Source: Isurus oxyrinchus
Lineage: Eukaryota
Direction: 5' to 3'
Assembly (NCBI GenBank): GCA_026770705.1
Contig: JANJGN010000323.1
Span: 434,001 to 498,000, forward strand
Length of the DNA: 64,000 nt
Shown: positions 21,799 to 60,858 of the stretch, one piece after another
Position numbering within the stretch: the stretch's first letter is position 1
Layout of the letters: every line of letters starts with the position of its first letter
Position numbers and translations under genes: made by a program
Notes under the pieces: model-generated
The model's input: only the letters and a program-made list of their open reading frames with translations
Told to the model about the DNA's origin: nothing
Database searches by the model: none

Positions 21799-22167
21799 TT
21801 GGACTGTCACAAGAGTGGAAAGGTGACACTCCACGAGAGGTGACAGCGCAGGAAGATTCGTGTGTACAGATTCCATGTCATTACAGTTATCCATCACATT
21901 TGGAAAGCCGACCATGAGTCGGAGTCTGGTTTAATAACGAGAATCAGATTCCTGGATCTCCCATTGCCTTTCACTCCAAGGACCACAGTCACGAGTTACC
22001 ACGGTTCCACCATCGGACCCGGCTGTCTGGAGACCTGAAAGATGGCGACTGTTCCCTGATTATAAACAACATCAGACGGGAAGATGCAGGACCTTATTTT
22101 TTCAGGATAGAATTTGACAGCAGAAATAGATACAGCTACTATCCTGTAACCCAGCTTCACATTTCTG
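21799..22167 (+). pseudogene. Gene B V-set exon with nonsense codon
   Basis: 369 nt; reads ..HLESRP*VGVWFNNE..YFFRIEFDSRNRYSY. Confidence 0.85.
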
Positions 22168-22567
22168 GTAAGTGCTGTGTTATAATTACTCAACAATTCA
22201 CATTCAACACTCAATGGGAAATAACACAAACTGTGACGTTTACATATTAACACAAAACACAGCTTATTATAACACACTGTCTGATTTTCAATAACCTGCT
22301 GATAGCTTCCAGTTCAGTCCTAAAGCAACCTCTATTACTCACTTTAATATCAATGATTAAATATATTGACTGTGTCCATCAAAGTTATCAGGTTATCCAC
22401 TCTCATCGATCTCTCTAATCCTGTTTAAAATAATTTCCTGATCATTGTAATCTCTCAGTTCTGATATCATCCTTGTAAAAGTGCTTTCTCTTGTGGGACT
22501 GTGATTTCTATTTGAACTGATGCTTCACGTTATATTTCTCTAAAAGGATCCATTTTCTGTCTGTTAG

Positions 22568-22864
22568 ATTTCACAGATAAACCCATGATATTCCCTGCTG
22601 AAATTATTGCAGGAAAGCGTGTGGATGTAAGCTGCACCTTCAACACAACGTGCAATGGAACAGCAGCACCTGTCTTAACCTGGGACACTCCCACTGACGT
22701 ACCTGGATCAGTCTCAAACACTGTAACTCAGCATGGTGTCACTCTGACCTATACTTCTGTTCTGACCCTGATCCCATCACTCAAACACCACGGACACACT
22801 CTCAGCTGCAGAGTGAGATATCCATCTGTTTCATCGGAGCGGACCCTCGTACTAACTGTACAAG
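22568..22864 (+). CDS. Gene B first C2-set exon (open)
   Basis: 297 nt, AG/GT intact, but downstream of a nonsense codon. Confidence 0.7.
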
Positions 22865-23084
22865 GTAAGTATGGACATCCTTCATTATACATTCGCTGGA
22901 ACAGTCTAGATTATGCACAGCAGGATCCCTTAGAAAGGTATTCTGATGAGAACCAGATTATCTGTAGTTTAGGGAAAAACACTGACCAGAAAACAGTCAA
23001 TGACAGTTTCTGAACATTAACACTGGAGCTTTTTTTTCCAGCCAAGAAGCTGACAGAGCAGAGCATCACTCACAATATACTAAC

Positions 23085-23870
23085 CCCCTGACAGTGCAGC
23101 ACTCCCTCAGTACTGACCGCCTGACAGTGCAGCACTCCCTCAGTACTGACCGCCTGACAGTGCAGCACTCCCTCAGTGCTGATCCTCCAACAGTGCAGCA
23201 ATCCCTCAGTACTGACCCTCCAACAGTGCAGAACTCCCTCAGCACTGACCCTCTGACAGTGTAGCACTCCCTCAGTACTGACCCTCTGACAGTGCAGCAC
23301 TCCCTCAGTACTGACCTGCTGAAATTGCAGCTCTCCCTCAGTACTGACCCTCTGACATTGCAGCACTCCCTCAGTACTGACCCTCCAATAATGAAACAAT
23401 CCCTCAGTACTGACTCTCCAACAGTGCAGCACTCCTTCACTGCTGACCCTCCAACTCTGCAGTGCTCCCTCAGGACTGAAAATCCAACATTTCATATCTC
23501 CCTCCTGACCGACCCTCTGAAAATACAGCAGATCCTCGGTCGAGACTTTCAAACAGTGCAGCACTTCCACAGTACTGAATCTCCCCCCCACCCACAGTGC
23601 AGCACTTCCAAAGTACTGAACCTCTGACAGTGCAGCACTCCCTCAGTACTGACCCTCCCACCTGCAGCACTCCCTCAGTACTGACCCTCCCACCTGCAGC
23701 ACTCCCTCAGTACTGACCCTCCCACAGTGCAGCACTCCCTCAGTACTGACCCTCCCACATGCAGCATTCCCTCAGTACTGACCCTCGCACATGCAGCACT
23801 CCCTCAGTACTGACCCTCCCACATGCAGCACTCCCTCAGTACTGACCCTTTGACAGTGCTGCACTACCTC
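23085..23870. repeat. 30-bp minisatellite array
   Basis: Tandem CAGTGCAGCACTCCCTCAGTACTGACCCTC units. Confidence 0.9.
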
Positions 23871-24096
23871 ACTATTGGCTTTAAACTAAATAGAGTGTGG
23901 GGCGAATGTTTCTGGAGAGGGTATATGTACAGTTACAAACCAAAAGGATTTATTAGCATTGCAGGATAGCTGTTTTGGCAACGATACCCAGTGTGTGACA
24001 GGAAGGGACACAGTGTCCAAACATAAAAATACATCAGCAAATAGTGTCAGAGGGGAGGGAATGATAAAAAGACAAAATTAATGGCTCTTTACTTAA

Positions 24097-24760
24097 ATGC
24101 ACATAGTATTTGGAATGTTGGCCTTTATTTCAAAGGGAATGGAGTATAAAAATAGGGAAGTCTTGCTAAAACTATACAAGGCACTAGTTAGACCACACCT
24201 AGAATACTGTGAGCAGTTTTGGTTCCCTTATCTAAGGAAAGATGTACTGGCATTGGAGGCAGTCCAGAGAAGGTTCACTAGGTTGATCCCAGTAATGGAG
24301 GGATTTTCATATGAGGAGAGGTTGAGTAGGATGGGCCTGTACTCATTGGAGTTTAGGAGAATGAGAGCTGACCTTATTGAAACATATAAGATTCTTAGGG
24401 TGCTTGACAGGGTAGATGCTGAGAGGTTGTTTCCCCTTGTGGGAGAGTCTAGGACCAGAGGGCATGATCTCAGAGTAAGGGGTCACCCATTTAAGACAGA
24501 GATGAGGAGTTTCTTCTCTCAGAGGGTAGTGAATGTGTGGAATTCTTTACTGCAGAAAGCTGCAGAGGCTGGGTCATTAATTATATTCAAGGCTGAGATA
24601 CACAGTTTTTTAATCAGTCAGGGAATCAAAGGCTATGGGGAAGAGGCAGGAAAGTGGAGTTGAGGATTGTCAGATCAGCCATGGTGTCATTGAATGGCGG
24701 AGCAGAGTTGATTGGCCGAATGGCCTCCTTCTGCTCTGACGTCTTGTGGCTTATGGTCTT
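24097..24760 (+). mobile_element. CR1 LINE 3' end (ORF2 C-terminus and 3' UTR)
   Basis: LYKALVRPHLEYC..QRRFTRLIP..RRMRADLIETYKI..FFSQRVVNVWNSL. Confidence 0.9.
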
Positions 24761-25315
24761 ATCACCCTCCAACAGTGCAGAGCTCCCTAATTACTGACCC
24801 TCCGACAGTGCAGCACTCTTCCAGTACTGACCCTCCGACAGTGCAGCATTCCCTCAGTACTGACCCTCCAACAGTGCAGAGATCCCTAATTACTGACGCT
24901 CCGACAATGCAGCACTCTTCCAGTACTGACCCTCCGACAGTGCAGCATTCCCTCAGTACTGACCCTCCAACAGTGCAGCACTGCCTCAATACTGACCCTC
25001 CAACAGTGCAGCACTCCCTCAGTGCTGACCCTCCGACAGTGAAGTACTCGCTCAGTACTGACTATGCGGCAGTGAAGCTTTCACAGTACCCACCCACCAT
25101 CAGTACAGCAGGTCCTCAGTACTCACCCTCCAACAGGGCAGCACTCCCTCAGTACTGACCCTCCAACAGTGCAGCACTCCCTCAGTACTGAACTGAAGAG
25201 TCTGCCTGAATTATGTGCTTTGTGGTGAAGGATTGATATTACACCTTTAACATTGTCAGGGTCTCTGAAAGTGCTTCACAGTCAATGTAAGTAACTGATC
25301 TTTATTTGTTTTTAG

Positions 25316-25583
25316 ATGCACCACAGAATCTCTCAATTACTTTTCATGATATGATTAACACTTCATGGATCAATATAATTGAGGGGAATTCTGCAGTGAT
25401 AATCTGCTCTGTCAAGAGCTTCCCAGCTTCTAACCTGACGTGGCGACATCTTAATGTCCCAATGAACAGAACAAGTTCCAACAATGAGCTGTGGTTGGTG
25501 ATTCCTCACCTTACATCCAGGGACACTGGAGACTATCAGTGTGTGGCAGAGAATGAACATGGAGCAGTGGAGGGGTTCATAAA
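25316..25583 (+). pseudogene. Gene B D3-type exon, donor deleted
   Basis: DAPQNLSI..YQCVAENEHGAVEGFI then diverges. The inverted paralog near 8625 keeps the GTGAG donor. Confidence 0.75.
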
Positions 25584-25589
25584 CATTCT

Positions 25590-26590
25590 GTTTTTATTAG
25601 CTCATGGGATGTGGGTAGTGTTGACAAGACCAGAAATCATTGCCCATCTGTAACTGCCCCTTGAGAAGGTGGTGGTGAGCTGCCTTCTTTAACCACTGCA
25701 GTCCATGTGGTGTAGGCACACCCACAGTGCTGTTAGGGAGGGAGTTCCAGGATTTTGACCCAGCGACGGTGAAGGAACGGCCGATATATTTCCAAGTCCC
25801 AGGGCAGACCACCACCTCAAGTTCACTTGCAAATCACACACCTCACTGACTTGGAACTGTCTTGGTGGAAGAGGTTAAGAGTTTGGAAGGTGCTGTCGAA
25901 GGAGCCTTGGTGAGTTGCTGCAGTGCATCTTGTAGATGGTGCACATTGCTGCCATTGTGTGCCAGTGGTGGAGGGTATGAATGTTTATGCTGGTGGATGG
26001 GCTGTCAATCAAACAAGCTGCTCCTGGATGGTGTCGAGCTTCTTGAGTGTTGTTGGAGCTGCACTTATCCAGCCAAGTGGAGATTATTCCATCACACTCC
26101 TGACTTGTGCCTTGTCCGATGGTGGACAGGCTTTGGGGAACCGCAGAGTTCCCAGCCTCTTACCCGCATTTGTAGCCACACTATTTCCTGTTGCCGGGAT
26201 GTTGCCAGGGCCAATAGCCTTTGCTGTATCCAGTATCATCAGCTGATTCCTGATGTCACGTGGAGTCAATTGAATTGTCTGAAAGCTGACATCTGTGATG
26301 CTGGGACCCTCTGGAGGAGGCCGAGATGGAGCATCCACTCAGCACTTCTGGCTGAACATGGTTGCCAATGCTTCAGCCTTGTCGTTTGCACTGATGTGCT
26401 GAGTTCCCCCATCATTAAGGATGGGGATATTTGTGGAGCATCCTCCTCCTGTTAGATCTTTAATTGTCCATCACCATTCATGACTGGATGTGGCAGGTAT
26501 GCAGAGCTGAGATCTGACCCGTTGGTTGTGGGATCGCTTTGCTCTGTCTATAGCATGTTGTTTCCGCTGTTTGGCGTGTATGTAGTCCTG
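25590..26590 (-). mobile_element. Degenerate CR1-group LINE fragment
   Basis: Reverse complement of 7590-8600. Confidence 0.65.
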
Positions 26591-26809
26591 TGTGTCACCT
26601 CAGCAGCTTGGCACCTCTGTTATATGTGAATCCTCCTTATAGAAACCTGCATGTACATGGATATTATCAATAAATATTACATAGCTATATGTTATTTGTA
26701 TAGACCTTTCATGCATAGACAATATCACTTCACAAGTTCAGAATTACTACATGTACATAGGGAACCATTCTCAAACTGTACCGGAGTCATTCATTGGCTG
26801 ATTTTACAG

Positions 26810-26906
26810 GGCGAGATTCCAATGAATGGAAAGCAGGATTGCTTGGAGCTGGAATCTGTTTGAGTGTTGGACTGAGTGGATTCTTCATCTTCAAGTGTGT
26901 GAGAAA
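26810..26906 (+). CDS. Type-B transmembrane exon (RDSNEWKAGLLGAGICLSVGLSGFFIFKCVRK)
   Basis: 97 nt, phase 1-2, homologous to 50225-50321. Confidence 0.75.
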
Positions 26907-27614
26907 GTAAGTGTGAAGCTTTAATTGGTTGTTTTTGAACATGTTTTCTTCAACGTTCTCTCCTTATAGAAAGAACTTGCATTTCTATAGCAACTTTTCC
27001 AACCCAAAACCCTTCACAGCCCCTGAAGAGCTTTGATGTTCACTCATTGTTTAACATCTCATCCAACATTCACTGTTTCACAACTCAGTCCTGTAACTGA
27101 CAGTGTTGACCCGGACCATAAAATACCTTGTGACTTCCTGAGGTTGTGAAAGCTGCTATACAAATGAAAACCTTCCTTTTGTTAGTGAATGCAATCTCTT
27201 TCCATTTTGCATGTTTCATTCACTCTCTCTTATCTCCACTAATGCTGGCCTTCTCATTCTCTCTCTCTCTCATTCACTCTCTCTCCAATCTCCACTAATG
27301 CTCTCCTTCTCATTCTCTCTCTCATCCTCTTACACGTTGTTCAGTATCTCACATTTTTAAGGAGTGCTGAGCAACATCTGCTCCTTCAGAAGATCCACCT
27401 CAACACCTGGAGTGAGCAGTGAAATGAAACTTGCTCAACGACTGTTCAGCTTTACACAGGAATCACGTCACAGAGTCAGGACACAAAGGGTTAACAGTTT
27501 GCTTACAACACAACACTAAGGCCCTACATTTCAATGAAAGGGTTTTCACAATTGTTCCCCAATTCCTGATTTGACTCACAGTGACACATCAACCCTTTCT
27601 CATTAAATACACAG

Positions 27615-27699
27615 AGGGAGCAGCACAGGAAGAGGTCATTCACCCCAAGCAGAGCGTGTGGGCAGTTCCTCCCCAGGCGAGCAGTCGGACAGGTCCTGG
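27615..27699 (+). CDS. Type-B cytoplasmic exon 1 (GSSTGRGHSPQAERVGSSSPGEQSDRSW)
   Basis: ACACAG acceptor, GTAAGT donor, phase 2-0, open. Bridges the TM exon to the phase-0 tail exons. Confidence 0.6.
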
Positions 27700-28210
27700 G
27701 TAAGTAACGGAACGATTGGAATTCACTTCCACCACCAACACCGTCCTTTGTTGATGTTGTGACTTTATAAAGACAGATTCCAATGACTGATGCCTTTGAA
27801 AGATTTCTACTGATTATTGAGATCTGGGTGTGAGGCTCAAGTCTGTTGTACAGAACATCTTCCTGGTTAAATTATGCAGACAGGTTACACACAGTCTACG
27901 ATTATATTCCCTCAGGTCTAGAAGATTAAGGAGTGATCTAACTGAGGGATTCAAACTGATTAAACACTCGATAGGGTCGACAGAGAGAAGCTATTCCCTC
28001 GAGTGGGGGTGGTTGGTGGGGGTCGGGTGGAGTCCAGAACAAGGGGGCCGGAACTTCAGATTGGAGCCAGGCCGTTCAGGGGTGATGTCAGGAAGCACTT
28101 CTTCACACAAAGGGGAGTGGAAATCTGGAACTCTCTCCCCAATAATCAAACCCAACACCGAATACACATCATGTTGATTGTCACTCTGTCCATTTCCATC
28201 TCTATTACAG

Positions 28211-28315
28211 AAGAGAGGCGAGGGGAAAGCAGGAATCAAATCGAACCATCGTGTTGATGAATATCAAGGTCCTGTTTATGAAAACTGTGAGCGTGGTTGG
28301 GCTTTGAGGAATCAG
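28211..28315 (+). CDS. Type-B cytoplasmic exon 2 (KRGEGKAGIKSNHRVDEYQGPVYENCERGWALRNQ)
   Basis: TTACAG acceptor, CAG|GTGAGT donor, phase 0-0. Confidence 0.55.
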
Positions 28316-28450
28316 GTGAGTCACACACCACAGGATCCCCAGCCTCTCAGCTGCTCCAGTAGCCTGGTTATTGATATGGCTGCTCCAGTCCTGTATCTGC
28401 ACTGTTTTATACAGTCACTCCCAAACCCAACCAAACTCACACCCAACACC

Positions 28451-28635
28451 ATTCAGAATCAATAATCAAACCCCGATCAGAATCAATAATCAAACCCCGT
28501 TCAGAATCAATAATCAAACCCCGTTCAGAATCAATTATCAAACCCCGTTCAGAATCAATAATCAAACCCTGTTCAGTATCAATAATCAAACCCCGTTCAG
28601 AATCAATAATCAAACCCTGTTCAGTATCAATAATT
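28451..28635. repeat. 24-bp tandem repeat (TTCAGAATCAATAATCAAACCCCG)
   Basis: About 7-8 direct units between the two tail exons. Confidence 0.9.
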
Positions 28636-28732
28636 AATGTATGTATTGTGGGTGGAATTTTCGATTTGGATCAATAATACTAAACACTGATCACTCTGAT
28701 TGTCACTCTGATCATTTCTGTTTCTATTACAG

Positions 28733-28849
28733 AAGAAAGATGAGAAGGATCTGGAAATGAAATCTAACCGCGGAGTCAATCCTGATACAGATGATGATCT
28801 TTACGCAAACTGTGATTTTGCCAAGGATTCTGTTTATGGGAATTTATAA
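28733..28849 (+). CDS. Type-B terminal exon (KKDEKDLEMKSNRGVNPDTDDDLYANCDFAKDSVYGNL*)
   Basis: TTACAG acceptor, TAA stop, two Tyr motifs after an acidic stretch. Confidence 0.65.
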   Translation, partial: KKDEKDLEMKSNRGVNPDTDDDLYANCDFAKDSVYGNL

Positions 28850-30189
28850 ACTGAGCAAGAATGAGACACACACAGTGTGGGGAGAATACAGAACGGGAGA
28901 ATCATTCAAAACTCCAATTTACCTTCCTAATATCCACAGGAACTCACTCCCAGGAAATAGATTTAAACCTCTCGTTACAATCTGATGGAATTTCTTCGGA
29001 ATGATCTATCCAGGATGATTGTCTGTGGGTTTCAATTCGAACATCCTCCTTCAGAATTGTCCCTCCCTGTTGGAAACATCCTTCTCTCCATTCTGATTGT
29101 AAATGTCTTTAGATATCGTTCGATGATGTACCAGGACAGAACGGACAAATTCAATCCCGTGTCCATGATTATGAGTTAATTTTCATTCTGTTATTCACCT
29201 TCCTGTCAGTCAGTGTTTACAGAATATTCATCAGCCAGTGTAGACTTCAGGAAATGCAGGATCGGTGGATAATTGGAGCAGAGGAGATAGGCAAAATTTA
29301 CTCAGCATTTTGTAATCAAATGTATTTTTAGATATATATTTGGATTTTACACTTCATCGTTAAACAGCAAAACTAACAGCAATCTGGGAAACAGGGAAAC
29401 AATTTGTTTGGAGATTTGAGAAATTCTCTGCAGCTCAGAGGAGAACAGATGTGCTACAGTGCCACCACTGGTGGGAGGACATCATTTCAGCGTGACATGT
29501 TTACATTGATGTTGCCAGTGAACATAGGAAATTATGATGTGAAAAATTGGTTGCAGGTTTACCTTCTTCAGAAGTTCATGGATGGATGAGACAGCTTTGA
29601 TAACAGAATGAGATATAGCTGCAATAAACCTCAATTTTAGTCTTTCACACTTGGAGAGTACAATTAGCATCCATTCTGAAGGCTGAGTGGATGGGTGGAC
29701 TGTGCGATGTGTTTCAGATCACAGAGACCAACATCCTTGATCCTGGTTCTGCTCTATGTTTGATGACATTCTTGGATAAAAGATTGGGAAAATAAATAAT
29801 CCTCCTGCATTGATCTGTAACTGGTCTCTCCATCTGTCAATGTCCTGAGGAGAGAATTGGGTTTGAGGTCCAAAATCAGATGCATACTTTGACTGCCCAT
29901 TGAATAGGAACAGGAGGAGGCCATTCAGCCCCCTCGAACCTGCTACACAGGAACAAGAGAGCACCTGAAATAAAAACAGAAAATGCTGGAGAAACTGAGT
30001 AGGTCTGGCAGCATCTGAGGAGAGATAAACAGAATTAACATTTCGAGTCCGTATGACCCTTCTTCAGAGTCTATATGCAAAAACTCTGTTTCTCTCTCCA
30101 CAGCTGCTGCCAGACCTGCTGAGTTAAGGCAACATTTTTCATTTTTATTGAAGATTTACAACATCTGCAGTATTTATTTTTAATGAGAG

Positions 30190-30938: not shown

Positions 30939-31023
30939 AGGGAGCAGCACAGGAAGAGGTCATTCAGCCCAAGCAGAGCGTGTGGGCAGTTCCTCCCCAG
31001 GCGAGCAGTCGGCCAGGTCCTGG
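30939..31023 (+). other. Gene C putative non-coding exon 1 (85-nt module)
   Basis: Ends at CCTGG|GTAAGT. The same module lies about 0.43-0.45 kb upstream of all five leader exons. The 5' boundary is uncertain if this is a first exon. Confidence 0.6.
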
Positions 31024-31473
31024 GTAAGTAACGGAACGATTGGAATTCACTTCCACGACCAACACCATCCTTTATTGATGTTGTGACTTTATAAAGACAG
31101 ATTCCAATGATTGATGCCTTTGAAAGATTTCTACTGATCATTGAGATCAGGGTGTGAGGCTCAGTTCTGTTGTACAGAATATCTTTCTAGCTCAAAGGAT
31201 GAGGGAATATCAGGGGTATGAGCTTTGGGACATCCTGAGGTGGTGAAAGGTGCTATAGAAATGCAAGTCCTTCATTGATTTATTTTTTTAAAGCTTTTTC
31301 ACTCTCTGCAGAGCACCTATCATCCCACAGAGAACCAAATTAGTCTGTGAAGACATTGTCTAAAAGCAGTTCTGATCTCTCGAGAGCTGTCGGACAAGAG
31401 GTGAGGTCTCAATAACTCCTTTCTCTTTCAGAGTTTAAGAGTCAGAAGCTAAAGGAATATCTGGGAGTGGACA

Positions 31474-31513
31474 ATGATCGGGAAATCTTACTTCCTCCTG
31501 TCACTTCTCCAAG
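31474..31513 (+). CDS. Siglec/MAG-like gene C, signal peptide exon (MIGKSYFLLSLLQ)
   Basis: ATG at 31474, donor CAAG|GTAATA in phase 1. Joined to the V exon it reads ...LLQVGLS/QEW, a plausible cleavable leader. Acceptor TTTCAG ends at 31431. Confidence 0.8.
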
Positions 31514-37703: not shown

Positions 37704-38072
37704 TTGGACTGTCACAAGAATGGGAAAGTAACACTCCACGAGAGGTGACAGCGCAGGAAGGTTCATGTGTACAGATTCCATGTCATTACAATTACCCATC
37801 ACATTTGTTAGAGAAAACACGTGTCGGAATCTGGAATATGAGGAGGGACAAATGGAATACATTGTCTACAGCCTTTCACTCCAAGGATCACAGTCACGAG
37901 TTACCACGGTTCCACCATCGGACCCGGCTGTCTGGAGACCTGAAAGATGGTGACTGTTCCCTGATTATAAACAACATCAGACGGGGAGATGCAGGATTTT
38001 TTTTTTTCAGAATAGAATTTGACAATGGTCGGAGCCACAACTATTATCCTGTAACCCAGCTTCACGTTTCTG
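37704..38072 (+). CDS. Gene C V-set Ig domain exon V1 (Siglec-type)
   Basis: CCCCAG acceptor, G|GTAAGT donor, 369 nt, phase 1-1, open. Siglec hallmarks EGSCVQIPC, GDCSL and FFFRIE (F-strand Arg). Confidence 0.88.
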
Positions 38073-38419: not shown

Positions 38420-39378
38420 AACATTCCCTATCTCAGGAGCCTCCTCCAGTCCCTACAACCCTCTCTATCTCAGGAGCCTCCTCCAGTCCCTACAACCCTC
38501 CCTATCTCAGGAGCCTCCTCCAGTCCCTACAACCCTCCCTATCTCAGGAGACTCCTCCAGTCCCTACAACCCTCCTATCTCAGTACTCTCTTCCAATCCC
38601 GAAAACCATTCCTATCACTGCAAACTCCTCCGGACCCAACACCCCTCCCTATCTCTTTAACCTCCTCAAGCCCCAATAACCCTCGCGATATTTGTTGCCT
38701 CCTCCAGTCCTAACAACCTCCCCTATCTCTGCAACCTCCTCCAGACCGAATACCTCTCCCTATCTCTGTAAGCTGGTCCATCTCTTACAACCCTTCATAT
38801 TTCTGTAACCTCCTCCAGCCCACTACAACCCTCCCTATCTCTGTAACCTCCTCCAGTCCCTAAGAGTTTCCTTTATCTCTGTAACCTCCTCCAGCCATTA
38901 TAACCCTCCCTATCTCTGTAGCCTCCCTCAGCCCCAGCCACACTCCATATCTATGTAACCTCGTCCTGCCCTTACAACCCTCCCTATCTCTGTAACCCCA
39001 TCCTGCCCCAAAAACTCCCCCATCTCTGTAAACTCCTCCAGTCCCTGCAACCTTCCCTACCTCTGAAACCTCCACCAGCCTTTCCAAGCCTCCCTACCTC
39101 TGCAATCCGTCCAGCCCCTACAACTCTTCCTATCCCTGTAAACTCCTCCAGACCCTAAAACCCTCTCTGCCCTTGCAGCCTCCTCCAGTCCCTACACGCT
39201 CCCCATCTCCATAAACTCCTCAAATCCCTACAGCCCTCCCTATCTCTGCAACCTCCTCCAGGTCCTACCACCCTCCCTCTCTGCGTAACCTCCTCCAGTA
39301 TCTACAGCCCTCCCTATCTCTGTTACCTCCTACAGCCCCCACAAACCTCCCTATCAGTGTAACCTCCTCCAGCCCCTG
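38420..39378. repeat. 37-bp minisatellite (CCCTCCCTATCTCTGTAACCTCCTCCAGCCCCTACAA)
   Basis: Tandem units; an opposite-orientation array lies at 47995-48520. Confidence 0.88.
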
Positions 39379-40302: not shown

Positions 40303-40671
40303 CTGAACCCTCACAAGAGTGGAAAGGTGACACTCCACGAGAGGTGACAGCGCAGGAAGATTCGTGTGTACTGATTCCGTGTCATTACAGTTATCCATCG
40401 TGTCTGGAAAACCAACCGCGAGGTGGAGTCTGGTTTAATAATGAGGAACAGATTTCCTGGGCTCCCATTGCCTTTTACTCCAAGGATCACAGTCACGAGT
40501 TACCACGGTTCCGCCATCGGACCCGGCTGTCTGGAGACCTGAAAGATGGCGACTGTTCCCTGATTATAAACAACATCAGACGGGAAGATGCAGGACCTTA
40601 TTTTTTCAGAATAGAATTTGACAATGGTCCGAGCCATAACTATTACCCTGTAACCCAGCTTCACGTTTCTG
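40303..40671 (+). CDS. Gene C V-set Ig domain exon V2 (Siglec-type)
   Basis: 369 nt, phase 1-1, open, canonical AG/GT. Motifs EDSCVLIPC, GDCSL and YFFRIE. Confidence 0.88.
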
Positions 40672-41484: not shown

Positions 41485-41781
41485 ATTTCACAGATAAACC
41501 CATGATATTCCCTGCTGAAATTATTGCAGGAAAGCGTGTGGATGTAAGCTGCACCTTCAACACAATGTGCAATGGAACAGCAGCACCTGTCTTAACCTGG
41601 GACACTCCCACTGACGTACCTGGATCAGTCTCAAACACTGTAACTCAGCATGGTGTCACTCTGACCTATACTTCTGTTCTGACCCTGATCCCATCACTCA
41701 AACACCACGGACACACTCTCAGCTGCAGAGTGAGATATCCATCTGTTTCATCGGAGCAGACCCTTATGCTAACTGTAAAAT
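41485..41781 (+). CDS. Gene C first C2-set exon (Siglec domain-2 type)
   Basis: TGTTAG acceptor, T|GTAAGT donor, 297 nt. DFTDKPMIFP..VSCTFNTMCNGTAAPVLTW..LSCRV carries the extra Cys used for the V-to-D2 disulfide in Siglecs. Confidence 0.88.
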
Positions 41782-46183: not shown

Positions 46184-46465
46184 ATGCACCACAGAATCTC
46201 TCAATTACTTCTCTTGATATGATTAACGCTTCATCGATCAATATAATTGCGGGGAATTCTGCAGTGATAATCTGCTCTGTCGAGAGGTTCCCAGCTTCTA
46301 ACCTGACGTGGCGACATCTCAATGTCCAAATGAACAGAACAAGTTCCAACAATGAGCTGTGGTTGGTGATTCCTCACGTTACATCCAGGGACACTGGAGA
46401 TTATCAGTGTGTGGCAGAGAATGAACATGGAGCAGTGGAGGGGTTCATAACCATCACTGTGGAAT
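46184..46465 (+). CDS. Gene C second C2-set exon (D3 type)
   Basis: TTTTAG acceptor, T|GTGAGT donor, 282 nt. YAPQNL..IICSVERFPASNLTW..DTGDYQCVAENEHG. Confidence 0.88.
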
Positions 46466-47994: not shown

Positions 47995-48520
47995 GGAGGG
48001 TTGTAGAGGCTGGAGGAGTTTACAGAGATAAGGAAGGTTGTAGGGGCTGGAGGAGGTTACAGAGATAGGGACGGTTGTAGGGGCTGGAGGAGGTTACAGA
48101 GATAGGGAGTGTTGTAGGGGCTGGATGAGGTTACAGAGATAGTGAGGGTTGAAGGGTCTGGAGGAGGTTACAGAGATAGGGAGGGTTGTAGAGGCTGGAG
48201 GAGTTTACAGAGATAGGGAGGGTTGTGGGGGCTGGAGGAGGTAACAGAGTTAGGGAGGGTTGTGGGGGCTGGAGGAGGTTACAGAGATAGAGAGGGTTGT
48301 GGGGGCTGGAGGAGGTTACATAGATAGGGAGGGGTGTAGGGATGGAAGGTGGTTGCGGAGTTAGCGAGTTTTATAGGGGCTGTAGGAGGTTACAGGGATA
48401 GGGACGGTTGTGGGGGTTGGAGGAGGTTACAGAGATAGGGAGGGTTATAGGTGCTGAAGGAGGTAACAGAGATAGGAAGGGTTATAGGGGCTGGAGGAGG
48501 TAACAGAGATAGGGAGGGGG
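47995..48520. repeat. 37-bp minisatellite, reverse orientation
   Basis: GGAGGAGGTTACAGAGATAGGGAGGGTTGTAGGGGCT units. Confidence 0.88.
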
Positions 48521-48828: not shown

Positions 48829-49122
48829 ATAAGCCGGAGATTTCCCAGCAGTCGGAGTGCACTCGGAGATCAGAGGGGGTCACCTGCGTCTGTGTGACCA
48901 CCTCCAACCCACCGGGAGACCTCACCTGGCACCTGCCCAGTGCCAACATCAGTGGTAACCAAACACACGGAGATTTTGTGTCGTGGCAGGTCAGAGATGG
49001 GCATCTGGTGACTGGTTCCCTCACCCTGATGAGACCTCAGGATGAGGGGGGAGTGATTGCATCCTGCTTGGTTCAAAACCCACATGGGGAAGCCATGTTC
49101 AAGGTGTATCTGTGGGTCAAAG
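48829..49122 (+). CDS. Gene C membrane-proximal Ig exon (MAG domain-5-like)
   Basis: CCTCAG acceptor, AAG|GTGAGA donor, 294 nt. YKPEISQQSECTRRSEGVTCVCVTTSNPPGDLTWHLPSANIS..SCLVQNPHG shows the C-x-C..SNP pattern I recall from the membrane-proximal domain of MAG and CD33-related Siglecs. Confidence 0.85.
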
Positions 49123-50224: not shown

Positions 50225-50321
50225 GTAGAGACTCCAGTAAATGGACAGTAGGATTGTTCACGGCTGGGATCATGTTGAGTGTTTTCCTGGCTGGAATCTT
50301 CATCTTCATCTGTGTGAGAAA
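50225..50321 (+). CDS. Gene C transmembrane exon (GRDSSKWTVGLFTAGIMLSVFLAGIFIFICVRK)
   Basis: TTACAG acceptor, AA|GTAAGT donor, 97 nt, phase 1-2. Uncharged hydrophobic span followed by basic stop-transfer residues. Confidence 0.85.
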
Positions 50322-51044: not shown

Positions 51045-51126
51045 GAGAAGGACAGCAATGGAGGAGAGAGTTTCAGGGACCAGAGACATTGCATTGACCC
51101 TCAGTTCACTCTCTGTGAACCACCAG
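51045..51126 (+). CDS. Gene C cytoplasmic exon 1 (RRTAMEERVSGTRDIALTLSSLSVNHQ)
   Basis: TTGCAG acceptor, CAG|GTACAG donor, 82 nt. Phase 2-0 exactly bridges the TM exon and the terminal exon. Confidence 0.75.
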
Positions 51127-52358: not shown

Positions 52359-52607
52359 GGTAAACAGAACGTGCTGATTACTGAGCCCCGGAACACAACC
52401 AGAGACACAACTAGCGAGGGGGAGACCCCAGCTCCCCGGGGTCTCTCTGAAGGTCCAGTGGGAGGTGGTGCTGGACATGGGAACCCTGACAATCCCAACG
52501 ACCTTCTCTACGCCAATCCCCAAGTCTTCAGGGTGCGCAGTGGTGATGGGACTGTCCACAAGGAAGAGGAGACGGAATACGCACAGATCAGATTCAAGCG
52601 AAACTGA
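52359..52607 (+). CDS. Gene C terminal cytoplasmic exon with degenerate ITIM (LLYANP) and ITSM-type motif (TEYAQI)
   Basis: CTGTAG acceptor, phase 0, TGA stop. Two-tyrosine layout typical of CD33-related Siglec tails. Confidence 0.85.
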   Translation, partial: GKQNVLITEPRNTTRDTTSEGETPAPRGLSEGPVGGGAGHGNPDNPNDLLYANPQVFRVRSGDGTVHKEEETEYAQIRFKRN

Positions 52608-54329
52608 GTGTGAAACGGAGAGAGGGGGTGAGGAGGTTTGTGGGTGGAGGCAGGGATTGTGATTCCTTGGAACATGAGACAACCCACTGGGGGAGAGGGG
52701 GAGAGAGGGAGGAAGGGACTGAATGGGTCTGTGGTTGGTGAGGTTTGGAATGAAATGTTTCCCCAGAGACGACTTGATGCTGAGTCATTGGGGACAGAGA
52801 TTCAGTGTCTCTCTCTCTCCCAGTCTGTCTCTCTATCTCTCTCTCCTTCTCTGTCTGTCTCTCTCTGTCTCTCTCCCTCTGCATCTCTGTCTATCTCTCT
52901 CCTCCTTTAACATAGTCCTTATTAACTGGTTTTGTTAACTCAGCTTTTTGTCACCTGTCCCTTATATCTCATTATTTGTCTCAGAGATGGATTTATATGT
53001 GGTTAACAATCCCCTGAAGAGCTTTGGGACAGTGTGCTACTTTAAGTGTGATATATAAATGCAAGTTGTTGTAGTAACGTTGATCTGCCTCGATTCAGAA
53101 TGGAAACACGGAGAATCCTTCGACAGGGCGTGTGTGCAACAGGCTCGCAATAAATGCATTGCACGGCAACAACTAAGCATGTCCTTTGATGCTGATGCAT
53201 CCCAGTCCTGCTGTGTGGACACATCACAACCGAGGGACTGCCTGACTGCGTGCAGCTAACATGGCAGAGTAGTAATTAGCAGAAATGTGACGTCACTGAA
53301 CTTTGTTAACATTTCAGAATGTGCTTTCTGAATTCTGCAACTTGTTTATTCTGTGATAGATTAAAAGAAGCTTTTGCATTTTCTATAATATTACATTTAT
53401 TGTCACAAGGGATTGAAATGCCCAGACAACACTGTACAGATATATTTTTATTAAACAGCTTACTCTGGGACAACCCCCCTGCTCCAATCTGTTAATTCAT
53501 GTCATTGCATTTCCCCACCAAATTATGTAAATTCATGTGTCCACATTTATCATGAAAATTTCCCATGTAAACATGTCACACTGTACTTACACTCTCTTGC
53601 CAGTGGTGGTGCTGTAAGCACACCAGATACTTTCTCAGCGATTGCAGGACATCTCCGAGTTGTCTTTACAATATTATTAAGATACAGGGAATGGGGACAA
53701 TCTTCACACTGTGGTTACGATGTTGTTAAGACAGATAGCTGGTGAAACCTCCTCCCCCCACTCCCGAGGCAGAATCTGTTCTGGCTGTGAGACCCCCACA
53801 CTTATCCCATGCCCCCTGTTCATTTCTCCATCCCTGCTCAAACTTAGCGCTTTTGGACATGAAGGGCGGGGCCCACAGGAAAGTGTGGAAGGGCTGCCCA
53901 TCGCAGCTGGAACAAGGATCCTGGCAGGTCTCCCAGGACAGAATGGCGGAGTGGGGGAGGGGGAGCAGTGGGGTCAATATCCACACCCTCCAGGAGGGCA
54001 GCATCATTCATCAGGGAAACGCAGGGCCGAATGCCCCTCCACCCGGAACGCTGTCCACCATGATTTCAACGTCCTTCACCGGAAGCCTTTTGAAGGTTGC
54101 CGTGGCCAGATTTCAATCGGCCGCTTGGTCACCATTGGTCCAAGCAGTCACTAAGCACCCACCTCTGCCCGCCCCTTTGCACTCATTCTGCAGCCACATC
54201 TTATGCGGGCAGGCCTTAATTAGCCCGGCCGCGTAAAATCGCAGCGCGGAGCTGATCGCGGGCAATAGTCGGATTCCTCACCGCCCCCAGCCCTGTGCAC
54301 CCCTGCCGAGGGCAAAAATCTGACCTGAA

Positions 54330-56340
54330 GGATCCCAGCAGAATAATAAAGAGGCAGAAATGATAATATGAGAGTAAACTAGCAAGAACCATAAACAATG
54401 ACAGTGAGATGTTGTACATTAAAATAAGAGAGAAGCTACAGTAATAATGGGACATATAGAAAATCAGACTGGGGAATTAATAATGGGAAACAAGGAAATG
54501 ACAGAGACTTTCAACAAGAATTTTGTGTCTGTCTTCACAGTAAAAATCTCTAAAACCATCCCAATAGCAGGAGAAAGTCACGGTGCAACAAGGAGGGAGG
54601 AACATAAAACAATCACTATCACCAGAGAAAAAGTATTAAGAAAACTAATGAGACAAATGCTGACAAGTCCCATGGAGCAGACGGCCTGAATGTGAGGGTC
54701 TGAAAGGAAATGGCTGCAGAGACAGTGGATGCATTGGTTGTAATCTTCCAGAATTCCTTAGATTATGGGAAGGTCCCAGCGGATTGGAAAAACATAAATG
54801 AAACATTTCTGTTCAATAAAGGGAGGATGCAGAAAGCAAGAAACTACAGGTCAGTTAGTCTAATATCTGTCATTGGGAAAATACCAGAATTCATTATGAA
54901 GGAGGGAGCAGCAGGACATTTAGAAAACCATAATTCAATCAGACAGAGTCAACATGGGTTTGTGAAAGGGATATCATGTTTGAAAAAATAATTAGATTTC
55001 CTCGAGGATGTAACAAGTGGATTGGATAAAGGGGAACCTGTAGATGTGGTGTATTAGGGACTATGACACAGCCAAGGATAAAGGCCGAGTTGTTCAAATC
55101 CCAGAGGGAAAATTGAAATAACTGTCATAACCTAATTTTGCTATTTGTAATTTCGAGATGAAGACTTTGAATTCAGTAGGAATAAGACCACGGAGGCTTG
55201 TGGGTTTTTTTATATAAAACTAAATAAACCATTTATTAATTTAACAACAAAATTAACACATACACATTGGCTACAAATAACTATTATAATAACATTTTAA
55301 CAAATCCCCCAATTAATCAACCCCACGTAAACCTCTACTAAGGCAACAATGAACCATTGACATAATATAGACACCAGGCAAAGCACATTTGACGTTACGA
55401 ATTCCGAATGAGGTTCCTTTGCAAGTTGGTTGGAGGCTGCAGGCTGGTTAGGTCTGAAATGCTCCTGCCTCACACACACAAACTCCTTCCTTTATATAGC
55501 TAGCTTTCCCTTTGAATGTAAATTTTCCATTGTATCACTCGGACTTCTGAAGTCCAGCTCTTCGAACAATAAAACCCCCTTTCATAGCACCAATTTCATT
55601 AGTAAGTTCAAGAAAAAACACATCTTTTGGCTCCTTCTAACTAGGTGCAAGATTTTACCCCCAGTCTGGAATGGTTTATTCAACAATTGCAAATGAACAA
55701 TTTACTGTTCTCCTCACAATTCACCCAATTAACATCTCAAAACTACTAAACATCAAAGCACACAGACCAGCTGGCTTTAATCCAATTAAGACACACACAG
55801 ACACACACCTATACATGGACCACCACTAGAATTCTATTTGAAAATATAATTTCCAAGCACATTTTACACACAAATATCTCTTCATGACACTGGATTTCCA
55901 AAAGGCATTCGATAAGTTGCCACATCAAAGGATACTGCACAGGGTGAAATTGGATGGTGTTGGGGGGGATATATTAATATGGATAGAGGACTGGCTAACT
56001 GACAGGAAACAGAGAGCCAGGATAAATGGGTGATTTTCAGCTTGGTAAACTGTAACTAGTGGAGAGCCACAGGGATCAGTGCTGAGGCCTCAACTATTCA
56101 CAATCTACATTAGTGACTTGGATGAAGGGACTGACTGTACTGTAGGCAGATTTTCTGACTGTGCGGTGAAGATAGGTAGGAAATATATAAGCTGAGCAGG
56201 AAAGCAAATTATGAGGAGGACACAAAGAGGCTGCAGAGGGAGATAAATAGTTTCAGTGAGGGGATAAAAAAATGAGTGGATGGAATATAAGGAATATAAG
56301 GGTGTCCAGCTGATCTTACTTGTTCTGTTCTTATATTCTT
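54330..56340 (+). mobile_element. CR1 LINE ORF2 fragment with nested insertion
   Basis: KVPADWK..NYRSVSL..QHGFVKG, then VDVVY, the insertion, and LDFQKAFDK. Confidence 0.85.
55058..55889. mobile_element. LTR-like non-coding insertion; relatives begin at about 51262 and 11681
   Basis: Shared 5' sequence (ATGACA..AAATCCCAGAGG..AACTGTCATAACC), ends CATGACA, and splits the CR1 RT motif. Confidence 0.55.
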
Positions 56341-56397
56341 ATACAGACACAAGGTTTACTGACAGTGCACAGCAAAGTGCTGTTCTCTCACTTTGTT

Positions 56398-56422
56398 CCA
56401 ACTTCCTCATTTTGACTCACTG
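56398..56422 (+). promoter_or_regulatory. PU.1/ETS-like (ACTTCCTCATT) plus AP-1 (TGACTCA) sites upstream of gene D exon 1
   Basis: Motif match only. ACTTCCTCATT recurs at the same position upstream of the modules at about 30884 and (minus strand) about 4279. Confidence 0.4.
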
Positions 56423-56455
56423 AGACACATCAACCCTTTCTAATTAAACACACAG

Positions 56456-56540
56456 AGGGAGCAGCACAGGAAGAGGTCATTCAGCCCAAGCAGAGCGTGT
56501 GGGCAGATCCTCCCCAGGCGAGCAGTCGGACAGGTCCTGG
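56456..56540 (+). other. Gene D putative non-coding exon 1 (85-nt module)
   Basis: Same module and GTAAGT donor as 30939-31023. Confidence 0.6.
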
Positions 56541-56973
56541 GTAAGTAACGGAACGATTGGAATTCACTTCCACGACCAACACCGTCCTTTGCTGATGTTG
56601 TGACTTTATAAAGACAGATTCCAATGATTGATGCCTTTGAAAGATTTCTACTGATTATTGAGATCTGGGTGTGAGGCTCAAGTCTGTTGTACAGAACATC
56701 TTTCTAGCTCAAAGGACATGAGCTTGGGGACATCCTGAGGTGGTGAAAGCGGCTATAGAAATGCAAGACCTTCATTGTTTTTCTTTCTGAAAGCATTGTA
56801 ACTCTCTGCAGAGCACCTATCATCCCACAAAGAATCAAATTAGTCTGTGAAGATATTGTCTAAAAGCATTTCTGATCTCTCGAGAGCATTCAGACAAGAG
56901 GTGAAGTCTCATTAACTCCTTTCTCTTTCAGAACTTCAGAGTTAGAAGCTGAGGAAATATCTGAGAGTGGACC

Positions 56974-57013
56974 ATGATTCGGAAATCTTACTTCCTCCTG
57001 TCACTTCTCCAAG
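56974..57013 (+). CDS. Gene D signal peptide exon (MIRKSYFLLSLLQ)
   Basis: ACCATG start, CAAG|GTAATA donor, paralog of 31474-31513. Confidence 0.8.
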
Positions 57014-60000
57014 GTAATACCATCGTCAGCTCAGACAGATTTATGGTTAATAGTCTTTGTAAAAGAACATTCTTATTGAACTCTGATAGGGAACTGAATC
57101 AGCAGTGATCCAGTGTACAAACTCACACCAAGTCCCATTCACCCATCACCCCTGTGCTCACTGATATACACTGAATCCCTGTCTGACAGTAGAATTGGAG
57201 GACAGCAGAGGTCTTGCAGGGTTGTAGGGGCTGGAGGGGTTTGCAGGGATAGGCAGGTTTGTAGCAGCTAGAGCAGAATCTTAAAATTCAGTTGCTGTCG
57301 GACGTTGGTCACTGAGCGATTGGGATTGATGGGTTGAGTAGAGAAGCAGGGATAAATACTGGTGGATGAAGCCTATCCTAATGTGAGGTCTCCTATAGCA
57401 ATGGCCTGAAATTTGTGTCCTTTCCTGCCTTTATTCAAAATTGCCCATGAAGACAACACAGCAGCTCCTAGAATAGACAGGCTGTTCAGTGTCACACTTC
57501 CTGTCCATTCTCACCTTGCTAGATACTTCAATAAGGGAGCAAGATAACTGAAAGAGAGAAGAAAGGTAAAGCTGTCTGTGTGTAAAACTGTCAAATATTC
57601 TGAGTTATCATGAGTGTCTCTGATCTGCTGCAGAGTTTAAATCTCACAGAATCTGAGCACTTTGCAGCTCAGAGAGAGACCATTGACTCACTGCCTGAAA
57701 GGGCGGTGGAAGCAGATTCAACAGGAACTTTCAGAAGGGGAACTGGATAAATACTTGAAGGGAAATTTGCAGGGCTGTGTGAAAGGTGCTGGAGAGGAAT
57801 TGGGAAAGAGCCAGCACATGCACGATGGGTCAAATGAGCTCCTCCTGTGTTGTATCATTCAACAATCAGACAATTTAAGACCCTTGTCAGCAAATCTTCA
57901 AAATCCTGCTGAATCACAGATGTTTCAGAAGGACAGGGAACAAGAGGTTTCTGGTATCAGCGTTTCATGTGGGGCCCAGTTCAGTTTGAACAAATAAACA
58001 ACGTCATCTTTGAAAGTCATGAACCCAACACAGCGGCACCTCCGACACATGCCGAGCTCAGGCTAGAGGCACTTTGTTAGTGTGTTTCACAGTGTCTGCT
58101 GGAGTAGGGTCAGTGCTGAGCTTGGGGACAAGTCAGTCTACAATGCTGCATCGGAATCAACAATACAACAATATGGGGTTTGGATCAGAAATAATCCCCT
58201 AGACAATGAGGATCCAAAGAGATTCTTCAGAAAATGAGGATCCAAAGAGATTCCTTAGACAATGAGGATCCAAAGAGATTCCTTTGGCAGTAAGAATCCA
58301 AAGAGATTTCTCATTCCATCGGTTGTCTAACTGGGGTCCATAATTTTCCAAGGGGTCCTTGGCAGAATCAAATTATCGAGCAATAGTGTGTAAAATACCG
58401 GAGAGAACGGGAAAGGTGGGATCAATGGAAAACTGTTCACTCTGTTTACACTAATGGGAGTTAGTCTCAGTAATGGAGACCATGAAACTATCATCGATTG
58501 TCATACACACCCATCTGGTTCACTAATGGCCTTTAGGGAAGGAAATCTGCCGTCTATATCTGGTCTGGCCTACATGTGACTCCAGACTCATAGCAACGTG
58601 GTTCCTCTGAAATGTCCGAGCAAACCATCCAGTTCTCACCATGCTAGAAACTTCAATAAGGGAGTAAGATAACTGAAAGAGAGAAGGAAGGCAAAGCTGC
58701 TCATGTGGATAGATGTCAAATATCCTGAGTGATCATGATTGTCTCTACTCTGCTACAGAGATTATGTCACGGGACATTAGAGATGGGCAGCAAATGCTGG
58801 CCTTGGCAGCGACGCCCACATCCCATGAATGAATACATTTACAAAATCTTATTACTTGGAAGGTGCAAGTGCAGGTTGTTATGATCCTTGAGCAGACCCT
58901 CTCAGCACTGACCCTACTCCAGCAGACCCTGTGAAACACACTAACAAAGCGCCTCTCGCCTGAGCTCTGCATGTGTCGGAGGTGCCGCTGTGGTGGGTTC
59001 ATGACTTTCAAAGATGGTGTTGTTTATTTGTTCAAACTGAACTGGGCCCCACACAAAACGCTGATACCAGAAACCTCTTGTTCCCTGTCCTTCTGAAATA
59101 TCCGTGACTTCAGCAGGATTCTGAAGAGTTGCTGATGGAGGAACAGAAACCCAATTTTTTTTGATAATTTACAGTTAGGAACCAATAATATTTTGTTTCA
59201 AGTAGACGAGGTTTGAGATTTAAGACGCTTGCAAAGAGAATAAAGCTACAAGATTCCATGGCTTTTAAACAAACAAAAATAAACTTTACCAGCTCAGAAA
59301 GATAAAATAATTCACAATATCCACCTTATACCCTAACATTCTGGATTAATATGAGCTCATGTGAATTAACAGGCAAACTGTGGTCTCACAGCCACATTAC
59401 TCATTAAATTGTAAACGCAACCAAGATAGAGCCCATGGATTTCACAACAACCCACCCGGACATCAGTGAACACTGTCAGTCAACCAATCTCACTGAAACT
59501 CTGTTTCTCTCATGAGGGATTCCAATCTTCAACTTCGAAGATCTTGCCTTGGAATTCTCTCCAAAAGTCGCTTCAACTCGGATGGCCTCAGTGACGTTCC
59601 ACCTCACAGGGTTTCCATCTCTTCTCCTGAGGCTCCATTGCCCTGGATTCCCGACTATATACTCAAGCACCACTAGGTTTAGATGAAAGGTTTTGATTGA
59701 CTGGGTAGAGAGAGAATGTTGCCTCTTGTGGGCAGGAGAATAACTAGAGGCCGAGTGATTGGTGATTCCTTAAACATTGAAGAGGGAATGAACACCAATC
59801 AGATTGAATCAGATTAGCCAATCAGCTGTGTTGAAGAGCAGACAGGAATGTTAGGCTAATTAGTGATTCATGACGGTGATAATGGGGGGAGTTCTGAGTG
59901 CTCCTAATCCATTGTCCTGTCTTGTAAATCAGCACTGAATGGATCTCAATTGGTGCGTCTTGTAGACACTGTGTTGGGTGGAAGACTGGCTTCACTAAGG

Positions 60001-60492
60001 GGAAGCGGTAGCAGAGAGGTATTGTCACAGGGCTAGTATTCCAGAGGCCCAGGGTGATGCTCTGGGGCCCTGGGTGTGAATCCCATCACAGCAGGTGAAT
60101 GGGATTAAAAAGCCTGGTTCACTGATCACCTATAGGGAAGGAAATCTGCCACCCTTACCCAGTCTGGCCTACATGTCACTTCAAACCCACAGCAATGTGG
60201 TTGACTCTTAAATACCTCTGATGGACATGGGATGGGCAATAAGTCCCATGAATGAATAATTTGAAAAAATTCTAAACAGAGTCCTGAGGAGCATGAGCCA
60301 ATGTAGAATGAACTTGTCCACTCCTGCATCCAGGATTCTCTTCCATCCATTGTGAAACCTTGAGGAGTTCCTTGTGTGTCCTGTAGATGGTCCACACTGC
60401 AGCCAATGTGCCCCAGTGATGGAGGGGGTGGATATCAAGTCTAGTGGATCGAAAAAACATCCAGAATTAAGTATTGATTTTTCTCTCCACAG

Positions 60493-60858
60493 TTGGACTG
60501 TCACAAGAGTGGAAAGGTGACACTCCACGAGAGGTGACAGCGCAGGAAGGTTCGTGTGTACAGATTCCATGTCATTACAGTTATCCATCACATTTGGAAA
60601 AGCAACCACGAGTTGCAATCTGGTTTAATAATGAGGAATGGAGAACATCGTCTATAGCCTTTCACTCCAAGGATCACAGTCACGAGTTACCACGGTTCCA
60701 CCATCGGACCCGGCTGTCTGGAGACCTGAAAGATGGTGACTGTTCCCTGATTATAAACAACATCAGACGGGAAGATGCAGGACCTTATTTTTTCAGAATA
60801 GAATTTGACAGCAGAAATAAATACAGCTACTATCCTGTAACCCAGCTTCACGTTTCTG
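60493..60858 (+). CDS. Gene D Siglec-type V-set exon
   Basis: 366 nt, open, phase 1-1. EGSCVQIPC, GDCSL and YFFRIEFDSRNKYSY (Arg plus G-strand aromatic residue). Confidence 0.88.

Follow-up and report, generated by a model that had tools for sequence, protein, structure and literature searches.

Mosaic loop versions in the V-set exons of a large Siglec-type receptor family in the shark Isurus oxyrinchus

The 64,000-nucleotide stretch of Isurus oxyrinchus DNA analysed here (the window; positions 434,001–498,000 of contig JANJGN010000323.1, assembly GCA_026770705.1) carries four exons for V-type immunoglobulin (Ig) domains of Siglec-type receptor genes. Their framework and 3′ intron are nearly invariant, whereas three short patches, in the B–C, C–C′ and F–G regions, vary and disagree about which exons are the closest relatives. 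How did adjacent parts of a single exon come by such different histories, and what might the patches do? An earlier note, made from the letters alone, had proposed that variation is confined to ligand-facing loops and that it reflects diversifying selection plus patchwork gene conversion, with pseudogenes as possible donors. The positions and peptides it quoted for the four exons, all on the + strand, are correct.

21799–22167, + strand: V exon of gene B, a single V; pseudogene, with an in-frame TGA (21915–21917) right after LESRP; B–C patch 21900–21914, C–C′ patch 21930–21965, F–G patch 22116–22139, essential Arg 22104–22106
37704–38072, + strand: V1 exon of gene C, the distal V, with a basic/aromatic MRR-type C–C′ loop; B–C patch 37805–37819, C–C′ patch 37835–37870, F–G patch 38021–38044, essential Arg 38009–38011
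40303–40671, + strand: V2 exon of gene C, the downstream V, with an extra B–C-loop Cys at 40401–40403 (PSCLENQP); B–C patch 40404–40418, C–C′ patch 40434–40469, F–G patch 40620–40643, essential Arg 40608–40610
60493–60858, + strand: V exon of gene D, a single V; B–C patch 60594–60608, C–C′ patch 60624–60656, F–G patch 60807–60830, essential Arg 60795–60797

Column counts over the four exons bear out the division into frame and patches. Variable columns number 19/30 from the B–C loop to the C strand, 28/44 in C–C′ and 14/24 in F–G and the G strand, compared with 5/125 in the C″–E framework, 1/24 at the G end, 14/96 in A–B and 16/191 over the first 191 intron columns. The conflicting groupings described in the earlier note also hold: C–C′ pairs gene B with V2 and V1 with gene D, whereas F–G pairs B with D and V1 with V2. 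Among the 32 informative sites and indels in the alignment, 11 of the 13 that precede the F–G patch favour the first of these groupings (the other two pair B with V1 and V2 with D), the F–G patch (columns 483–502) contributes ten consecutive sites that favour the second, and eight of the nine in the 3′ intron return to the first. A run of ten was reached in 0 of 100,000 permutations (p<1e-4; runs test p=9e-5). A tract with another topology on both sides of it is the mark of conversion or a double crossover.

These exons belong to a family of several hundred genes. A 29-base V framework pattern has 647 exact matches in the same genome and is present in 219 of the 252 full V exons that were fetched. 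Three matches lie on large contigs outside the main cluster contigs (G000:C34:15138064, 15163702; C25:36073483); the two on C34 have diverged further and are candidates for the ancestral locus. Transmembrane (TM) exons are of three types, which total 538 genome-wide: TM1 (90) and TM2 (219), both followed by tails with immunoreceptor tyrosine-based inhibitory motifs (ITIMs) and together numbering 309, and the Arg-type TM3 (229). One transmembrane pattern search returned zero matches. At least 16 contigs carry parts of the cluster, which exceeds 10 Mb in total; the 4.17-Mb contig C52 alone holds 158 TM exons (28 TM1, 66 TM2 and 64 TM3). RAG1 was found once in the genome, so the assembly is not doubled throughout; the cluster may nevertheless hold both haplotypes, and the halved count would still be about 270 loci.

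The exon sample was drawn from 160 stretches (1.6 Mb) picked from the hit lists of three queries plus the window neighbours. These gave 257 V hits and 252 full exons, of which 210 are unique (32 broken); one mis-cut sequence was dropped from the 195 unique in-frame exons, leaving 194 aligned and 178 intact. Exon counts throughout include related copies and are thus not independent. Arrays contain from one to seven V exons, and each exon is classed here as distal, downstream or single. In the seven-V arrays (G000:C52:1871386-1887044, C52:3539150-3554806 and C189:689532-705200) one distal V precedes six downstream V exons, which are spaced at about 2.3 kb and several of which encode identical protein.

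In this larger set the mosaic structure is firm across up to 194 exons. The 178 intact exons carry 43 B–C, 49 C–C′ and 33 F–G peptides in 98 combinations (amino-acid patch triples). The pairwise homoplasy index (PHI) test gave p=0.002 for the whole exon in this set and p=0.002–0.004 within the distal, downstream and single classes. A single congruent tree along the exon, the result that the earlier note had named as contrary to its proposal, was rejected by the approximately unbiased (AU) test on 30 thinned exons, in which the tree of each segment failed on the other segment (p=5e-10 and 3.5e-4). All four combinations of C–C′ (WAP or xxSS) and F–G (H or Y) versions occur within the downstream class, and likewise within the single class.

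The versions are discrete alleles. For F–G, 133 of 193 exons lie within 0–4 nt of the H version (NGPSHNY) and the remaining 60 at 10–14 nt, with none at 5–9 nt. On a tree of the remaining exon and its flanks (180 exons) the F–G version changes at least 15 times, compared with a shuffled mean of 43 and with one change under clonal descent; for the C–C′ version, a tree of the rest of the sequence (128 exons) needs ten changes, against a shuffled mean of 38. Point mutation cannot explain 10–13 linked changes, silent ones included, that recur 15 times. The exchange is seen most directly in a pair of near twins, C52:892408 and C189:266032, in which 13 of the 20 differences over about 1190 nt fall inside 23 nt. 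Patchwork gene conversion, as the earlier note proposed, is thus indicated by the run test, PHI, AU, the allele-change counts and this near-twin pair.

Silent divergence tells how old the patches are. The proportion of synonymous differences (pS) is 0.32 in B–C, 0.39 in C–C′ and 0.34 in F–G, and equals or exceeds the proportion of nonsynonymous differences (pN, 0.21–0.39). Elsewhere pS is 0.04–0.09 in the framework and 0.021 in the C2a exon, and the first 120 intron bases give a median of 0.042 (the mean of 0.14 is raised by structurally differing copies). Whole-gene duplication cannot give adjacent exon parts such different silent ages, which implies that the framework has been overwritten and that the loops are old. 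The patches, as their sequences indicate, are old cassettes within a homogenised frame. PWAP-, xxSS-, GPSH- and NxY-type loops occur in several shark orders (catshark, smooth-hound, carpet shark, squalomorph), PWAP also in a ray, and lamniform frameworks with different loop types differ less from one another (0.07 and 0.10) than from domains with the same loop in other taxa (0.17 and 0.18, respectively).

Comparison of sequences identifies the four window exons as Siglec V-set exons. The Pfam V-set and Ig_CD22 matches coincide with them, and a search of solved structures in the PDB returned Siglec-5 (E=2e-16), sialoadhesin, CD33, Siglec-8 and MAG; a basking shark homolog matched the CD33 V+C2 structure with E=1.5e-24. 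The nearest database proteins are gene models from white shark and basking shark, with up to 89–91% identity and automatically assigned names of Siglec-10/12/13, CD33-like or MAG-like. By Pfam, PDB and exon order, an N-terminal V-set domain homologous to Siglec domain 1 is followed by C2-type domains. The essential F-strand Arg is present in all four window exons. Over the 194 aligned exons the Siglec cysteine pattern is found, with Cys at alignment columns 21, 26 and 93 in 192, 191 and 192 exons, respectively; the partner Cys in C2a aligns with the CD33 partner Cys, and the disulfides are predicted from the sequence. The A-strand Trp is present in 191 exons, and the G-strand aromatic position holds His in 126 and Tyr in 64; aromatic residues of the A and G strands are part of the Siglec ligand site. 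The genes are sialic-acid-receptor-like, and their Arg-dependent binding of sialic acid is putative.

In a tree of 38 rows with a midpoint root, the elasmobranch proteins group in a separate clade (94/91) next to that of the tetrapod CD33-related Siglecs (98/94), both set apart from the MAG-like and CD22-like rows (100/96). In build the shark proteins resemble the CD33-related paired Siglecs; orthology to them is possible. Modelled domains (single domain, pLDDT 64; V–V–C2, pLDDT 72 and pTM 0.51, these being predicted local-accuracy and template-modelling scores) gave generic multi-Ig matches in a fold search, plus CD33, MAG and Siglec-10. As in paired receptors, near-identical ectodomains (C2a pS 0.021 across genes) occur with ITIM-type tails or with a charged transmembrane segment and short tail, and distal and single V exons occur before all three TM types. 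A single-V Arg-anchor lineage with a broken V is widespread (for example G000:C323:512500, C52:396987 and C52:943309); of 13 single-V genes found ahead of TM3, 11 are broken, which echoes the frequent nulls of human activating Siglecs.

Are the patches ligand-facing? Passages of the MAG structure paper (PMC5150538) place the ligand site in the C–C′ loop and strands F and G, describe contact between the Ig2 head loops and the A2–B side of Ig1, and report that Cys37–Cys165 links Ig1 and Ig2. On this basis C–C′ and F–G face the ligand, as the earlier note had it, and B–C lies outside the canonical site. Confinement to ligand-facing loops was therefore an overstatement: B–C tracks the position of the domain, and variation in the larger sample extends to the C and F strands and to C′–C″. 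The B–C Cys, seven residues after the B-strand Cys, is present in 100/102 downstream, 1/74 distal and 5/53 single exons, and in 38/49 downstream, 0/27 distal and 1/68 single database domains from other sharks and rays; inspection by eye of 16 non-shark multi-V proteins found no B–C-loop Cys. In C2a the partner Cys stands six residues after the B-strand Cys, and a downstream V is likely to accept a disulfide from the V before it. The essential Arg is kept in 101/102 downstream, 50/53 single and 45/74 distal exons (lost in 1, 3 and 29, respectively), and most distal domains have long basic, aromatic C–C′ loops.

The reading that we favour, to which we assign a probability of roughly 0.7, is that a few deeply divergent loop versions have been moved between several hundred Siglec-type genes by short conversion tracts while the framework was homogenised. 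Near-identical flanks (the C″–E core and the 3′ intron) would seed conversion, and tracts of ∼23 nt would carry a whole F–G or C–C′ version. The versions may have begun as ancient markers of the distal, downstream and single-V lineages and then been shuffled in the lamniform expansion. Their long survival suggests that they have been kept by balancing or position-specific selection, not by fast ongoing amino-acid change. The choice among sialylated or mimicking ligands is likely tuned by the C–C′ and F/G versions, a putative role; the B–C Cys of a downstream V likely takes an inter-domain disulfide from the preceding V; and ITIM-tail and Arg-transmembrane genes, which share the V pool, would act as inhibitory and activating pairs. 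Ligand tuning, the disulfide and adaptor use are all predictions.

Several points weigh against this reading. The sample is non-random, biased to C52 and to the hits of three queries, and the patch-allele frequencies rest on it. Within half-exons of the pooled set PHI was not significant, and conversion, although well supported by the sequence comparisons, is not separable here from double unequal crossing-over. The contrast that points to framework homogenisation is limited to lamniforms: catsharks, smooth-hound, carpet sharks and rays have frameworks that still group by loop type, and heavy shuffling may be lineage-specific. A C2a omega (nonsynonymous to synonymous rate ratio) near 1 and the 32 broken among 210 unique V exons indicate that many copies are drifting. 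The V–V–C2 fold model is too poor for any Cys–Cys distance. As for selection, site model M2a compared with M1a on five block-specific trees gave p=0.11, no single block was significantly above omega 1 and an internal-branch omega of 1.38 in the patches was not significant; saturation between old alleles limits the test.

One alternative, possible but rather unlikely in our judgement, is that ongoing pathogen-driven positive selection makes new loop changes, which conversion merely spreads. Here the diversifying selection proposed in the earlier note is directly at issue; the proposal as a whole is partly supported. A fixed-site model gave omega 1.46 in the three patches [likelihood ratio test (LRT) statistic 4.7 versus 1, p about 0.03, the patches having been chosen post hoc] and 0.69 outside them (LRT 14.4 below 1). 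With one tree per half-exon and 60 exons each, M2a was preferred at p=0.005 and 0.0002, with omega2 of 2.2–2.5 on 18–22% of sites, mostly in B–C, C–C′ and F–G. Spanning-tree counts of nonsynonymous and synonymous changes gave a pooled B–C omega of 1.9 (p=0.011) and a borderline result for the downstream-exon C strand (p=0.0498), the remaining patches not being significant, and the distal V F strand shows pN 0.176 against pS 0.046. However, the near-invariant C2a control exon passes the one-tree M2a test too (LRT 19.4), which looks spurious, and the block trees remove the signal; one-tree site models were consequently dropped as proof of selection. In addition, patch pS is about equal to pN and the main alleles are older than the species. 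Evidence of positive selection is thus weak.

A second alternative, which we hold no more than possible, is that the patches are position-specific structural features that pack on the preceding V, the swaps being mostly neutral by-products and not ligand tuners. The Cys does track position almost perfectly; downstream V domains keep both the Cys and NGPSH, His occupies the G-strand aromatic position in 87/102 downstream exons, and the contact of the MAG Ig2 head loops with Ig1, noted above, offers a precedent for such packing. Against this, the C–C′ side loop forms the ligand site and is dimorphic even in downstream exons (pS 0.34, pN 0.26), and both F–G versions are found in distal and single domains, which have no V before them.

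It is improbable that pseudogenes or non-expressed tandem V exons act as a bank of donors, on the model of chicken immunoglobulin conversion and possibly somatically. Broken exons are numerous, as stated above, arrays reach seven V exons and, according to passages of PMC5701461, human SIGLEC16P converted SIGLEC11. Of the 16 in-frame broken exons, 8–11 have a patch that also occurs in an intact exon; these are the common patches, and direction is unreadable from sharing. The 12 closest F–G-swapped pairs are all intact–intact, most V exons are intact, and the exons of tandem V arrays retain AG/GT and splice V-to-V. The suggestion of pseudogene donors thus found no support; donation as for SIGLEC16P is possible but not needed to account for the mosaics.

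The variation is germline and not somatic, as it lies between genomic copies. Splice sites of the AG/GT type flank 244 of the 252 V exons, and no recombination signal sequence (RSS) abuts the V coding end in those that were fetched. A weak 23-spacer RSS-like motif (5/7 heptamer, 7/9 nonamer) recurs in the window at 22258, 38163, 40762 and 60949 (+ strand) and at 2847 (− strand), about 80–100 nt into the conserved V 3′ intron, with no recurring 12-spacer partner seen in the window. The window contains 11 lax RSS-like matches compared with 0–5 in shuffles, at least five of the 11 being copies of one inherited intron site. V(D)J-type rearrangement was rejected: the motif is that one inherited site.

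Finally, it is very improbable that the assembly, through uncollapsed haplotypes or chimeric contigs, has created the copy number and the mosaics. The scatter of the cluster over 16 or more contigs, the 93/252 exons with a twin no more than 1 nt away and one block found at five places would fit such artefacts, but 158 TM exons lie on C52 alone, RAG1 occurs once, there are 98 distinct patch triples among 178 exons, and the same mixed combinations recur in independent white shark and basking shark proteins.

The remaining features of the window are set out below; V1 and V2 are two domains of the single gene C protein.

1308–3702, − strand: gene A; leader about 3661–3702, C2a 1783–2079, partial C2b
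G000:C323:433492-433629, just outside the window: Arg-type TM3 exon of gene A, with a central Arg and a short tail
19560–28846, + strand: gene B; leader 19560–19599, V with stop, C2a 22568–22864
about 25318–25590 and about 26812–26907, + strand: C2b (3′ end truncated) and TM1 of gene B
about 27617–27700, 28211–28315 and 28730–28846, + strand: cytoplasmic exons of gene B, with tyrosine motifs LYANC and VYGNL
31474–52607, + strand: gene C, an intact 692-residue inhibitory-type receptor with an open frame and AG/GT at every intron
31474–31513, 41485–41781, 46184–46465 and 48829–49122, + strand: leader, C2a, C2b and C2c of gene C, V1 and V2 following the leader
50225–50321, then 51045–51126 and 52359–52607, + strand: TM2 and cytoplasmic exons of gene C, with LLYANP and TEYAQI
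56974–64000, + strand: gene D, which runs past the window; leader 56974–57013, V, C2a 61717–62013
near 62235–62325 and 63038–63319, + strand: an internally deleted C2b and a C2b of gene D

Gene A is without a V exon, though the V 3′ intron is kept. A near twin of gene B 78 kb upstream (G000:C323:377505) has the same stop codon, which indicates a pseudogene duplicated as such. Past the window gene D continues with seven more C2b exons, TM1 (G000:C323:506198) and tail exons. From gene to gene the number of C2b exons ranges from 0 to about 8 (in gene D, from 63038 in the window to G000:C323:504931), making stalk length another variable. Broken copies on the − strand have left orphan TM1, partial C2b and ITIM-tail exons at 7263–7358, 8626–8688 and 17281–17523. 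An 84-nt exon stands ∼0.5 kb before nearly every leader and is also the first cytoplasmic exon of TM1 genes, with copies at 19044–19127, 27617–27700, 30941–31024 and 56458–56541 (+ strand) and at 4149–4232 and 6266–6349 (− strand); the signalling tail has apparently recruited the upstream exon. In introns, 33-bp and 37-bp minisatellites occur in both orientations at 9610–10428, 23078–23871, 24764–25191, 38425–39377 and 47995–48518. Contigs from public sequencing runs that are guessed to be RNA, none being on record as such, show leader–V, V–C2a, C2b–TM2 and TM2–tail joints, and V-to-V joints in three contigs of one run and one of another, with short overhangs; the joints may come from paralogs, are not assigned to the window genes and give no ranking of expression.

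Mammalian CD33-related Siglecs comprise about ten genes, compared with hundreds here. They share with the shark family the V-set F-strand Arg, the cysteine pattern, clustered genes, ITIM-type and charged-transmembrane partners and repeated conversion. Passages on Siglec-5/14 and Siglec-11/16 describe repeated conversion, once from a pseudogene allele (PMC6288428, PMC5701461, PMC13358205), and conversion in mammalian paired Siglecs is described as spanning about 2 kb or several exons and making the binding domains of a pair alike. In the shark family, in contrast, the framework is homogenised, the loop versions stay distinct and the tracts are tens of bases long. Two or more V-set domains in a row occur in Siglec-12 and other tandem-V Siglec-like proteins of primates, turtles, frogs and teleosts, on the basis of a passage of PMC6288428 and of database proteins. 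Siglec-12 is alike in its tandem V-set domains and in the Arg loss known in human Siglec-XII; the shark family differs in having up to seven V exons and the B–C-loop Cys in downstream V domains.

In the class I and II genes of the major histocompatibility complex (MHC), micro-conversion moves linked changes in short tracts, motifs outlive species and synonymous diversity is raised near the binding site. These features recur here, although MHC has another fold and ligand, and the shark diversity, of putative function, lies among hundreds of loci, not in alleles of a few. Chicken and rabbit Ig V conversion and shark Ig and T-cell receptor V genes likewise have V-type exons, patchwork loops and tandem arrays; the shark Siglec V exons differ in being without an RSS at the coding end, with their own splice sites, tandem splicing and germline mosaics.

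In most accounts the Siglecs form a small family that expanded chiefly in mammals. That conversion acts on paired immune receptors is already known, and genes of related sharks have been automatically annotated as Siglec-12/13-like; the ligand role is predicted here. A search of titles and abstracts, with subscription papers and supplements outside its scope, found no literature on a shark Siglec expansion or on loop-level conversion; the family may be listed in supplements of genome papers, such as Supplementary file 9 of PMC8455134. In the passages available, PMC8455134 mentions Siglecs once, PMC13262535 places the Siglec family at tetrapod level and a preprint describes the teleost Siglec repertoire as smaller.

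The picture of Siglecs as a small family changes with a shark cluster that exceeds 10 Mb and holds hundreds of paired receptors. Within it, conversion both homogenises and diversifies one 370-nt exon, and near-twin exons that differ almost only in the 23-nt F–G patch or in C–C′ provide a natural loop-swap experiment for glycan specificity. A mix-and-match sensor set of this kind would need no antibody-style rearrangement. More speculatively, and on balance doubtfully, lamniform sharks might possess a germline combinatorial repertoire of some 300–550 paired Siglec-type receptors, with interchangeable tip-loop cassettes on disulfide-stapled poly-V stalks whose outermost domains (Arg lost, C–C′ long and basic/aromatic) have turned from sialic acid to pathogen surfaces. 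If true, no Siglec family described so far would come near the size of this innate, anticipatory receptor system.

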